Below, in pieces: positions 62,918 through 64,000 of a DNA stretch of 64,000 nt. The translations under genes and the position numbers were made by a program. How positions within the stretch are numbered: position 1 is the first letter of the stretch; the number at the start of each line of letters is the position of its first letter. The stretch comes from an uncultured Gammaproteobacteria bacterium. GTDB taxonomy: Bacteria; Patescibacteriota; Patescibacteriia; Magasanikbacterales; UBA922. The stretch spans positions 428,585 to 492,584 of the forward strand of contig CAYMVY010000001.1 in the NCBI GenBank assembly GCA_964394405.1, given 5' to 3'. Below the pieces are notes generated by a model. That model worked only from the letters and a program-made list of their open reading frames with translations, was not told where the DNA came from and searched no databases.

Positions 62918-62956
62918 ATATATCAGTAAAGTATGGTTTGTGTAACCAGGGTTATC

Positions 62957-62985
62957 TTGACAAAAAGCTTCCTATATGCTATACT
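62957..62985 (+). promoter_or_regulatory. consensus sigma70 promoter TTGACA-N17-(TGc)TATACT
   Basis: ttgaca 62957-62962, tatact 62980-62985. Confidence 0.5.
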
Positions 62986-63105
62986 GTGCTGTTTTATGAA
63001 GTGGGAAATCGTGCTTCATAGTCTTGACCTCGATAGCAGTATATGCGTATAGTGAAAGTAGGTGGCAGGATGCCTAAGTAGGTGGGGGATAGAAAGGGGA
63101 GGGTA

Positions 63106-63135
63106 TCTTGACAAAAGCAGGGATATATGGTATTA
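63106..63135 (+). promoter_or_regulatory. second promoter TTGACA-N18-TATTAT sharing the upstream box ggtatcttgacaaaa with the first
   Basis: ttgaca 63106-63111, tattat 63130-63135. Confidence 0.45.
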
Positions 63136-63467
63136 TATAGGGTCATAAAATGAACCAGGAATATAGGTTTCGCAGGTAGGGAATAACAGACGATTTCCTC
63201 CATGCGTAGCCTATACGGGGCTCCGAGGTACATAGTGTGCCTTGTACACATTCTTTACAATATAAGTTCATCATAAAAAGTACCTCTGCCATCCATATGG
63301 AATGCAGGAGAATGAGGTGGTATATCGAGTATATACCATGTCACCCTTCTGCATTCTGGGTCACGACAAGTCGTCGTAACCATAGGATCAGGGACCGTGT
63401 CCGAGTTTGGTTGAGAAACCTTGCTTGGATACCACTGCTGATTAGAGGAGTTAGAAAAATGAACAAG

Positions 63468-64000
63468 CTCGATCCGGCCCTCCAGACCATGCTCGACGAG
63501 ATCTCCAAGTGGAAGGAGGAAGCCCTGGCGGCGACCGCTGACCCCAACGAGGTCGAGAAGATCAAGGAGGAGGCCAAGAACAGGACCACGAACGCGTTCC
63601 TGACCTACTCGGTCTCGGACGCGCTCTCGAAGTTGCGTCCCGAGCTCGACGAGGCCAAGGCGGATGCCGCCGAGGCCAAGACCAAGGCGTCGGACGCTGA
63701 GGTCGCGACGGGTGAGCTCAAGGAGAAGGTCGACGAGGTCCAGACGGACTTCAAGTCCCTCCGGGCCGGAATCTCGAAGGACTTCGAGAGCATCGACAAG
63801 GAGATCAAGGAGACGGCCAAGAAGAGCGCCACCCCCGGGTGGCTCAAGGCCCTCGCGGTCCTCGCGCTCCTCGTCGGCATCGGTGCGTTCATCGACGCGC
63901 GGCTCAACCCGAGCGGCATGACCGACGAGGAGGTCGCTGCGGCGATCGACAAGAAGGTCCAGGAGGTCTTGGTCGACTACGCCAAGAAGGATTCGGTGCT
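63468..64000 (+). CDS. hypothetical coiled-coil protein with one TM helix, high-GC cassette ORF E (3' partial, runs off window)
   Basis: Manual translation from ATG 63468 (RBS GAGGAG): MNKLDPALQTMLDEISKWKEEALAATADPNEVEKIKEE...SATPGWLKALAVLALLVGIGAFIDARLNPSG... Third codon positions are almost entirely G/C. Not in the ORF track because it has no stop in the window. Confidence 0.6.

Follow-up and report, generated by a model that had tools for sequence, protein, structure and literature searches.

Genes for surface-layer (S-layer) proteins possess two promoters of high efficiency, a biased codon usage and a long 5' untranslated region (5' UTR) that stabilizes the message, and in Lactobacillus slpA the structured 5' UTR gives mRNA half-lives of 14-15 min (PMC3666127). 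Here we describe the last kilobase of a 64,000-nucleotide (nt) stretch of contig CAYMVY010000001.1 (assembly GCA_964394405.1), hereafter the window, in which tandem promoters and a folded leader precede an open reading frame (ORF) whose codons end almost exclusively in G or C. By analogy, S-layer gene expression is the closest documented parallel to this arrangement, without membership of that class being established: the locus likewise displays at least two efficient tandem promoters, a long stable 5' UTR, biased codons and an envelope product, all of them predicted here from the sequence alone. Variation at S-layer loci also arises when conserved 5' regions recombine, as in slpA/slpB and Campylobacter fetus sap, and this parallels a cassette swap that we observed at 41.3 kb of the window. 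Unlike S-layer genes, however, the ORF showed no S-layer domain or homolog in our searches, its predicted product is a bitopic coiled-coil membrane protein, its leader measures 316-467 nt, and its codon bias runs opposite to that of the genome, ribosomal-protein genes included, rather than intensifying the preferred codons.

On balance, and with moderate confidence, we take this region to comprise the control sequences and the opening gene of a cluster of envelope genes that is native to the lineage and conserved within it. Past the terminator of a gene for a 1702-amino-acid (aa) protein, two strong sigma70-type promoters, P1 and P2, together with a weaker third, P3, would drive transcription rightward, yielding an mRNA with a folded 5' UTR in which a 28-bp hairpin stands about 100 nt upstream of an apparently accessible GAGGAG ribosome-binding site (RBS). 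Translation of the ORF would give a bitopic membrane protein that has its N-terminal coiled coil in the cytoplasm, spans the membrane with one transmembrane (TM) helix and exposes a helical part outside the cell, and the G/C-ending codons of the ORF would represent a composition that the lineage keeps in a class of genes, not the mark of a recent import. As proposed for this cluster by comparison with S-layer genes, tandem promoters, a stabilizing leader, a GC-rich message and, in relatives, GC-rich 3' hairpins may together produce an abundant, long-lived mRNA. The features of the locus are collected in Table 1.

Table 1. Features of the GC3-saturated locus and of other GC-rich ORFs in the window (GC3, G+C content at third codon positions; MFE, minimum free energy; dG, folding free energy).
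Feature	Position	Strand	Details
Intrinsic terminator of the 1702-aa gene	62891-62916	+	perfect 11-bp stem AAAACACCCCC/GGGGGTGTTTT, then T-run
Promoter P1	62957-62985	+	TTGACA-17-TATACT, 11/12; TG-extended -10 (TGCTATACT); predicted start ~62992
Short hairpin	62994-63021	+	5' end of P1 transcript; UUAUGAAGUG...GCUUCAUAG; MFE structure
Weaker promoter-like site P3	63024-63053	+	TTGACC-18-TATAGT, 10/12
Direct repeat	63056-63085	+	AAGTAGGTGG, two copies 20 nt apart
Promoter P2	63108-63136	+	TTGACA-17-TATTAT, 11/12; TG-extended -10; predicted start ~63143
5' leader from P2	63143-63458	+	316 nt, non-coding, 44% GC, z -7.2
Leader hairpin	63162-63215	+	23-nt arms, 78% complementary
Long leader hairpin	63291-63361	+	28 bp, dG -35.0 kcal/mol; AT-rich tip tggtatat/atatacca; ends 97 nt before ATG
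Shine-Dalgarno sequence	63445-63450	+	GAGGAG, 8 nt before ATG
GC3-saturated ORF	63459-64000	+	at least 180 codons, runs off the window; ORFan
Protein of this ORF	residues ~1-125; 127-146		coiled-coil region; TM helix; further helix beyond
GC-rich ORF	11426-11677		83 aa; consensus promoter at 11320
GC-rich ORF	11915-12124		69 aa; good RBS, no clear promoter
GC-rich ORF	41955-42296		113 aa; extended -10-like TGGTATATA only; abuts tRNA-Lys 42462-42537

The window is a segment of bacterial chromosome with 41% GC that carries genes for transfer-messenger RNA (tmRNA), SmpB, IF3, L20, tRNAs, RecG, RadA, PheT and pyruvate phosphate dikinase. It has the DUF5663 gene and the gene order L20-L35-IF3-SmpB-...-DUF5663-69aa-giant protein in common with metagenome-assembled genomes (MAGs) of Candidatus Parcubacteria and Magasanikbacteria, on which basis the host is assigned to the Patescibacteria (candidate phyla radiation, CPR) of the Magasanikbacteria type. 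Scanning GTDB genomes with a DUF5663 alignment yielded 13 related loci, and the DNA downstream of the giant-protein homolog is visible in four of them (L013, L014, L018 and L020), to which the comparison of layout refers. The same layout was found in all four: a giant-protein gene with a GC3 of 0.21-0.34, a terminator, an AT-rich spacer in which one or two promoters follow the pattern CTTGACAAAA-N-(A)TGCTATACT, a leader of about 230-400 nt, and then ORFs with a GC3 of 0.78-0.95. Tandem promoter copies occur in L013 and L020; those of L013 lie 271 nt apart with a leader of 331 nt, the corresponding values in the window being 151 nt and 316 nt. Folding of the relatives' leaders gave z scores of -4.9 (L013) and -7.0 (L018), and these leaders contain a long hairpin of 26-32 bp that ends 69-110 nt before the start of the GC3-rich ORF. 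The GC3-rich ORFs are parted by AT-rich spacers, which in L013 have 28-36% GC and thus fall below the genome mean, and they are followed by very stable 3' hairpins (-40 to -50 kcal/mol). They encode TM and coiled-coil proteins, signal-peptide proteins and lipoproteins with thrombospondin type 3 repeats (TSP_3; E 1e-34 to 6e-37). Because several of them are homologous between genomes (27%, E 9e-9, and 36%, E 4e-15, between L013 and L014; 26%, E 8e-4, between L013 and L020), the cluster is judged from these alignments to be inherited and fast-evolving, with its GC3 kept.

P1 and P2 conform to the sigma70-type pattern of TTGACA and TATAAT hexamers spaced by 16-18 nt. Only eight sites on both strands of the 64 kb match at 11 or more of the 12 positions, and two of these are P1 and P2. 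Around the -35 hexamer the two are alike at 15 of 16 nt (GGTTATCTTGACAAAA versus GGGTATCTTGACAAAA); scored as a BLAST match, the shared box amounts to 13 nt with an E value of 0.9, which is not significant. Strong promoters before GC3-rich ORFs, comprising those at 62957, 63108 and 41270 of the window and those of loci L007, L013, L014, L018 and L020, are alike beyond the hexamers, sharing an A-tract after the -35 (CTTGACAAAA), a TG-extended -10 (TGCTATACT) and an initial transcribed motif resembling GTTCTAA(A/G)(A)T about 5 nt past the -10. The box common to P1 and P2 is, by this alignment, the lineage-wide strong-promoter consensus CTTGACAAAA...TGCTATACT, and it is unnecessary to regard the two promoters as paralogous, as had been done in an earlier note on this stretch made from its letters alone. 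That note had correctly recognized a terminator followed by two consensus promoters with a common box, as well as a weaker TTGACC...TATAGT candidate near 63040; its coordinate for P1 (62957) holds, whereas the second promoter, which it placed at 63106 with an 18-nt spacer, lies at 63108 with one of 17 nt. The transcription starts of P1 and P2 are predicted ones, to which the presence of the promoter consensus at orthologous positions in L013, L014, L018 and L020 lends indirect support. The direct repeat AAGTAGGTGG could be a protein-binding site, with weak statistics (0.38 matches expected; 6 of 100 shuffles reach two), and enrichment of the motif AAGTAGGTG was not significant.

The spacer between the 1702-aa gene and the ORF (62857-63458) has 42-44% GC and holds no credible ORF. 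Measured from P1, the leader would extend over about 467 nt. Compared with shuffled controls, folding gave z scores of -5.3 for the P1 leader (62992-63470) and -7.2 for the P2 leader (63143-63470), in agreement with the long structured untranslated leader that had been suggested; the description of it as purine-rich applies only mildly (56% purines). The energy of the long hairpin contrasts with -19.4 +/- 3.9 for the best hairpins in control 400-nt stretches, and the tggtatat/atatacca palindrome pointed out earlier is real, being the tip of this hairpin. Rfam, proposed as a check on the leader, provided no family, with only chance matches below threshold (mir-4657, 23 bits versus 73; rimP, 22 versus 47), and a scan of the whole window at gathering thresholds returned only tmRNA and tRNAs. 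We found neither copies of the leader elsewhere in the window nor terminal repeats resembling those of miniature inverted-repeat transposable elements, and an exact-DNA scan for the leader hairpin in JGI metagenomes returned nothing. A 12-nt direct repeat, AAAATGAAC(C/A)AG, was also observed, as AAAATGAACCAG at 63147-63158 right after P2 and as AAAATGAACAAG at 63456-63467 on the true start codon. The copies, 309 nt apart, are identical at 11 of 12 positions, and the first opens a nine-codon upstream ORF, MNQEYRFRR; the first GC3-rich ORF of L013 also begins (G)TGAACAAGC. This repeat may have been left over from an earlier arrangement with a short leader, or be due to chance.

The ORF starts at 63459, not at 63468 as first annotated, with the translation that was quoted at the time, and it is indeed preceded by a textbook GAGGAG-N8-ATG signal. 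Its G+C contents at the first, second and third codon positions (GC1, GC2 and GC3) are 0.60, 0.37 and 0.94, the native GC3 of the window being 0.355 +/- 0.04 with a maximum of 0.46 (42 ORFs); the earlier statement that nearly all third positions are G or C was thus accurate. Only 1% of third positions are A and 5% are T, AAG and AAA are used 23 and 0 times, and GAG and GAA 19 times and once. GC3 climbs along the ORF, being 0.60 in codons 2-6 and about 0.9 in later codons, a ramp typical of an ORF adapted in place for initiation, which argues against a recent import. The encoded protein is rich in Ala, Lys, Glu and Asp and contains 12.8% Lys versus 2.2% Arg; the ratio K/(K+R) is 0.85, compared with 0.38-0.86 in the GC3-rich gene class and 0.31-0.76 in native genes, and GC2 across that class (0.37-0.51) is native-like.

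The prediction of a coiled coil plus TM helix was upheld, the helix GWLKALAVLALLVGIGAFI having a Kyte-Doolittle value of 2.13. An AlphaFold single-sequence model is all-helical, at low confidence (pLDDT 53). Because positive charges precede the TM helix, we infer a bitopic protein of N-in/C-out topology with a cytoplasmic coiled coil. The homology search recommended for the partial protein gave no usable homolog: a word-indexed search of 5.8 billion clusters found no match, and a full HMMER search of 1.84 billion representative proteins returned two coiled-coil-type matches at chance level (E ~1e-5). Scanning GTDB genomes, IMG/VR and JGI metagenomes with peptide patterns gave no match, Pfam, NCBIfam and PHROGs gave only generic coiled-coil matches below cut-offs, PDB gave none at E <0.3, and the window contains no paralog of the ORF.

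To what does the lineage owe this composition? In the profile along the cluster, spacers are AT-rich, the last 90 nt before the start codon have about 0.5 GC and the 3' hairpins are GC-rich, for which reason we favor, with modest confidence, a transcript-level cause (stability, structure or special decoding) of the GC3 saturation; the same profile argues against regional biased gene conversion and against donor composition. Extending this, we tentatively propose that Magasanikbacteria-type Patescibacteria may maintain a class of genes with a GC3 of 0.8-0.95 in genomes of 35-45% GC, composed of the envelope cluster beyond the gene for a giant surface protein and of small swappable ORFs, all set in AT-rich scaffolds of a conserved promoter/initial-transcript module, a long hairpin leader and a 3' hairpin; if so, a process not yet described would act on ORFs or transcripts alone, and the promoter/hairpin scaffold would be a platform for cassette exchange. 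Were this true, candidate processes would be selection for hyper-stable or specially decoded mRNAs, targeted mutation or conversion and, at the far end, tuning to the translation of a high-GC host. Literature searches for GC3-rich genes in CPR/Patescibacteria and for the run accessions returned nothing relevant, and a GC3-saturated gene class in AT-rich regulatory scaffolds is apparently undescribed.

Several observations weigh against a native envelope cluster with maintained composition. Ordinary translational selection for high expression was rejected as the source of the codon bias, because in the window the genes for ribosomal proteins and translation factors do not exceed a GC3 of 0.46, and it would be unusual for selection to be strong enough to keep a GC3 of 0.94 in the face of an AT-biased background. 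No S-layer domain (SLH or other) or other defining domain was found in the ORF protein with Pfam, NCBIfam, PHROGs or PDB. Neither tblastn nor hhalign revealed homology between the ORF and the TM/coiled-coil GC3-rich proteins of the relatives, so that orthology is positional and architectural only. In a MAFFT alignment of the five orthologous leaders, only the promoter is conserved. Finally, the ORF is truncated by the end of the window, and its body past 63479 is without a second assembly.

Another GC-rich unit in the window provides direct evidence of exchange. A 1.9-kb contig from a third sample (L006, SRR8893623) is 98.7% identical to the window over 40059-41312 and 99.6% over 41751-41987, whereas the two are entirely different in between (41313-41750), the window carrying a 5' UTR, an RBS and a 121-aa GC-rich ORF where the other strain has an unrelated GC-rich ORF of 110 aa. 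The edges of the swap are exact, falling after ...GTTCCGTTCTAAGT, 14 nt past the -10 box, and at CCCGACGCGTGCGAC, the foot of the 3' hairpin. As read from this pair of sequences, GC-rich ORF units are replaced between a conserved promoter/initial-transcript module and a conserved 3' hairpin. The ORF at 63.4 kb may likewise have been exchanged by recombination between conserved flanks, which would explain its missing homologs and the break of an independent contig within it. The arrangement resembles cassette systems such as integrons and Borrelia vlsE, in that short ORF units between a conserved 5' module (the promoter and the first ~14 transcribed nt, ...GTTCCGTTCTAAGT) and a 3' hairpin are replaced wholesale; vls loci are moreover GC-enriched relative to their genome, as are the GC-rich ORF units here. 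In contrast to integron or vlsE cassettes, every unit brings a promoter and an RBS of its own, and we saw no integrase, attC R-boxes or silent cassette arrays; the demonstrated swap is the one at 41.3 kb. Integron gene cassettes were rejected as an identification, since such cassettes lack a promoter, which these ORFs possess, and the window ORFs that were scanned included no integrase (attC sites were not formally searched).

In the 40.4-kb block, a PyrE-like phosphoribosyltransferase (PRTase) gene with a C-terminal CxxC extension (40446-41135, minus strand) has a GC3 of 0.76. Another sample (L007) contains an ortholog that is identical to it at 66% of aa and 73% of nt and likewise forms a GC-rich ORF within AT-rich, alignable flanks, indicating that the composition persists over time, and the 3' terminator region is more conserved (88% over 92 nt) than the ORF (73% nt). 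The three further GC-rich ORFs of Table 1 have a GC3 of 0.70-0.83 and no family match. Their equation in style with the ORF at 63.4 kb is only loosely valid: their GC3 is lower and their leaders are short.

We considered other origins of the composition alongside inheritance. Recent horizontal acquisition, by which the ORF and the other GC-rich cassettes would have come from a high-GC donor (a host bacterium, phage or plasmid) to lie behind native promoters with the donor's GC3, appears unlikely to us. It would account for a GC3 of 0.94, which is expected of a genome with at least 70% GC and lies 14 standard deviations from the native genes, and for a protein that is an ORFan, as many phage and accessory genes are, and lacks homology to the same-position ORFs of relatives; strain-level replacement of a neighbouring-type cassette is documented, and the genome encodes DprA, compatible with natural transformation. 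Like genomic islands and ORFan 'morons', the locus combines atypical composition, missing homologs and its own promoter, and small GC-rich ORFs lie beside a tRNA gene at 42.4 kb. Yet searches of 5.8 billion clusters, 1.84 billion representatives, GTDB genomes, IMG/VR and JGI metagenomes brought up no donor relative, and megablast against a phage collection gave no match. Unlike in genomic islands, the atypical GC is confined to ORFs, the GC jump coinciding with the ATG, and the same locus exists in relatives: all four with visible downstream DNA have GC3-rich ORFs there, some of them mutually homologous, so that the locus is neither empty nor ordinary. The protein is Lys-rich and Arg-poor with a GC2 of 0.37, nearer to native proteins than to high-GC proteomes, and the PRTase orthologs keep the pattern of GC-rich ORF and AT-rich flank over 27% nucleotide divergence. 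No integrase or mobility genes lie nearby, and no mobility genes, att repeats or tRNA target were found on the left side of the ORF border, the right border being outside the window. The 'foreign' composition proposed in the earlier note, taken as imported DNA, is thus not supported, given the layout in four related MAGs, the homology among several ORFs, native-like Lys/Arg usage and GC2, and the missing donor. Even less probable is GC-biased gene conversion at a recombination hot spot, whereby frequent exchange among strains through the conserved promoter and 3' arms would have driven synonymous sites to G/C. The precise cassette swap between conserved flanks in 99%-identical strains would fit such a process, as would the fast evolution of the cluster proteins (25-36% identity), the possible strain heterogeneity behind the contig break in the ORF, and the GC enrichment of antigenic-variation loci such as Borrelia vls. 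However, a tract-based process would not spare the spacers, which stay AT-rich (28-36% GC in L013), the equally fast-evolving giant protein has a GC3 of 0.21-0.35, and the size of the effect is far above anything reported for bacteria.

The abrupt change of composition exactly at the ATG also raises the question of an assembly chimera, in which a high-GC contig of another organism would have been joined to a Patescibacteria contig at ~63459. As an independent assembly we used Logan (run SRR12404947), three contigs of which overlap the window. One matches positions 30680-42518 with zero mismatches and spans the GC-rich block at 40.4-42.4 kb; the second, positioned from the coordinates of its genes, begins before the first letter of the window, reaches ~13368 and includes the block at 11.4-12.2 kb; the third covers 51414-63479 with zero mismatches and ends 21 nt into the ORF. 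The assembly check called for in the earlier note was thus passed end to end for the other GC-rich cassettes and by 21 nt for the leader/ORF junction. It is consistent with a chimera that only these 21 nt of the ORF are independently joined, a break that could also reflect strain heterogeneity, and that the remaining ORF is seen nowhere else. Nevertheless, because the third contig crosses the junction, with its k-mer path running through 63449-63479, the junction k-mers are independently supported, the other two GC-rich regions are each spanned without mismatch in single contigs, the RBS stands at ideal spacing before the ATG, and the same architecture occurs in four MAGs from other projects; this comparative evidence makes a chimera very unlikely. 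The reading of the leader was weighed in the same way. It is doubtful that the transcribed spacer is no leader at all, with P1, P3 and P2 driving small RNAs or a riboswitch-like regulator, or with the additional promoters being relics of cassettes since lost, and with the ORF transcribed from a nearer start such as the TTTACAAT box at 63254. Pointing in this direction are three promoter-like sites within 180 nt, a terminator-like hairpin at 63235-63249 followed by ATTCTTTACA, a (T)TACAAT-type box, at times in variant form, that closely precedes the long hairpin in most of those leaders of relatives that were inspected, the strong structure statistics, and the tandem promoters of L013 and L020. 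Against it, Rfam gave no family match, nothing is conserved past the promoter, the candidate terminator is weak and lacks a clean U-run, and no acceptable -35 lies upstream of TACAAT; small RNAs or regulators of this kind would in any case be compatible with the proposed front end of an envelope cluster.

Regions of atypical GC are usually taken for horizontally transferred or contaminating DNA, and tools for the curation of MAGs may even remove them. That several related genomes of the candidate phyla carry GC3-saturated genes at one and the same locus, behind native promoters and with a native-like protein composition, would mean that the signal is inherited and maintained. If confirmed, the locus would be a natural case of gene-class-specific synonymous composition, in which selection on mRNA or translation could be separated from mutation bias and biased conversion. 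It would further point to the most strongly expressed envelope proteins of uncultured organisms, which are candidates for host attachment, and its promoter, leader and hairpin modules might be usable as expression parts or as cassette-exchange markers in Patescibacteria.

The gene upstream of the leader (57748-62856) encodes the giant protein of the conserved gene order, for which a search of 5.8 billion protein clusters returned one homolog, at 31% identity. Syntenic counterparts (1230-1780 aa, Lys/Glu-rich) are clear in GTDB loci L005, L013, L014, L018 and L020. No Pfam domain was detected in it or in these counterparts, and it is probably a lineage-specific surface or cytoskeletal protein. 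Four GTDB records (L010, L011, L014 and L017) are titled 'uncultured Gammaproteobacteria bacterium' yet carry the Patescibacteria-type DUF5663 locus, and their titles look mislabelled. When a spurious 79-aa minus-strand ORF was used as a query, only the same Logan contig was returned.

Elsewhere in the window, the tmRNA gene (53191-53594, minus strand; tag peptide ANLLERAKSAVAKAFSVSSFAPAVA) adjoins smpB (53613-54113). The conserved sequence TTGACAAT...TATACT at 53774, which falls inside the coding sequence of smpB some 180 nt ahead of the tmRNA gene, recurs in most relatives and may be the tmRNA promoter. In the Logan gene calls for L003, a small 87-aa ORF of GIY-YIG / T5orf172 type occupies 7382-7645, immediately before tRNA-Arg(GCG) at 7646-7718, and a second tRNA-Arg(CCG) is found at 8435-8507; both of these tRNAs read GC-rich Arg codons. 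In the relatives, a 3' element ACTGGTGTTCCCTGGGGAGA...TCCCCCAGGAACCAGTCA follows successive GC3-rich ORFs (L013 17101-17180 and 18148-18225; L020 17235-17330 and 18594-18690), with 90% identity between the two L020 copies and a hairpin of -40 to -50 kcal/mol. This element could be an mRNA 3' stabilizer or a recombination site, and a complementary CACCAGT(A/G) box lies about 140-170 nt downstream of it, beside a TTACAAT box.

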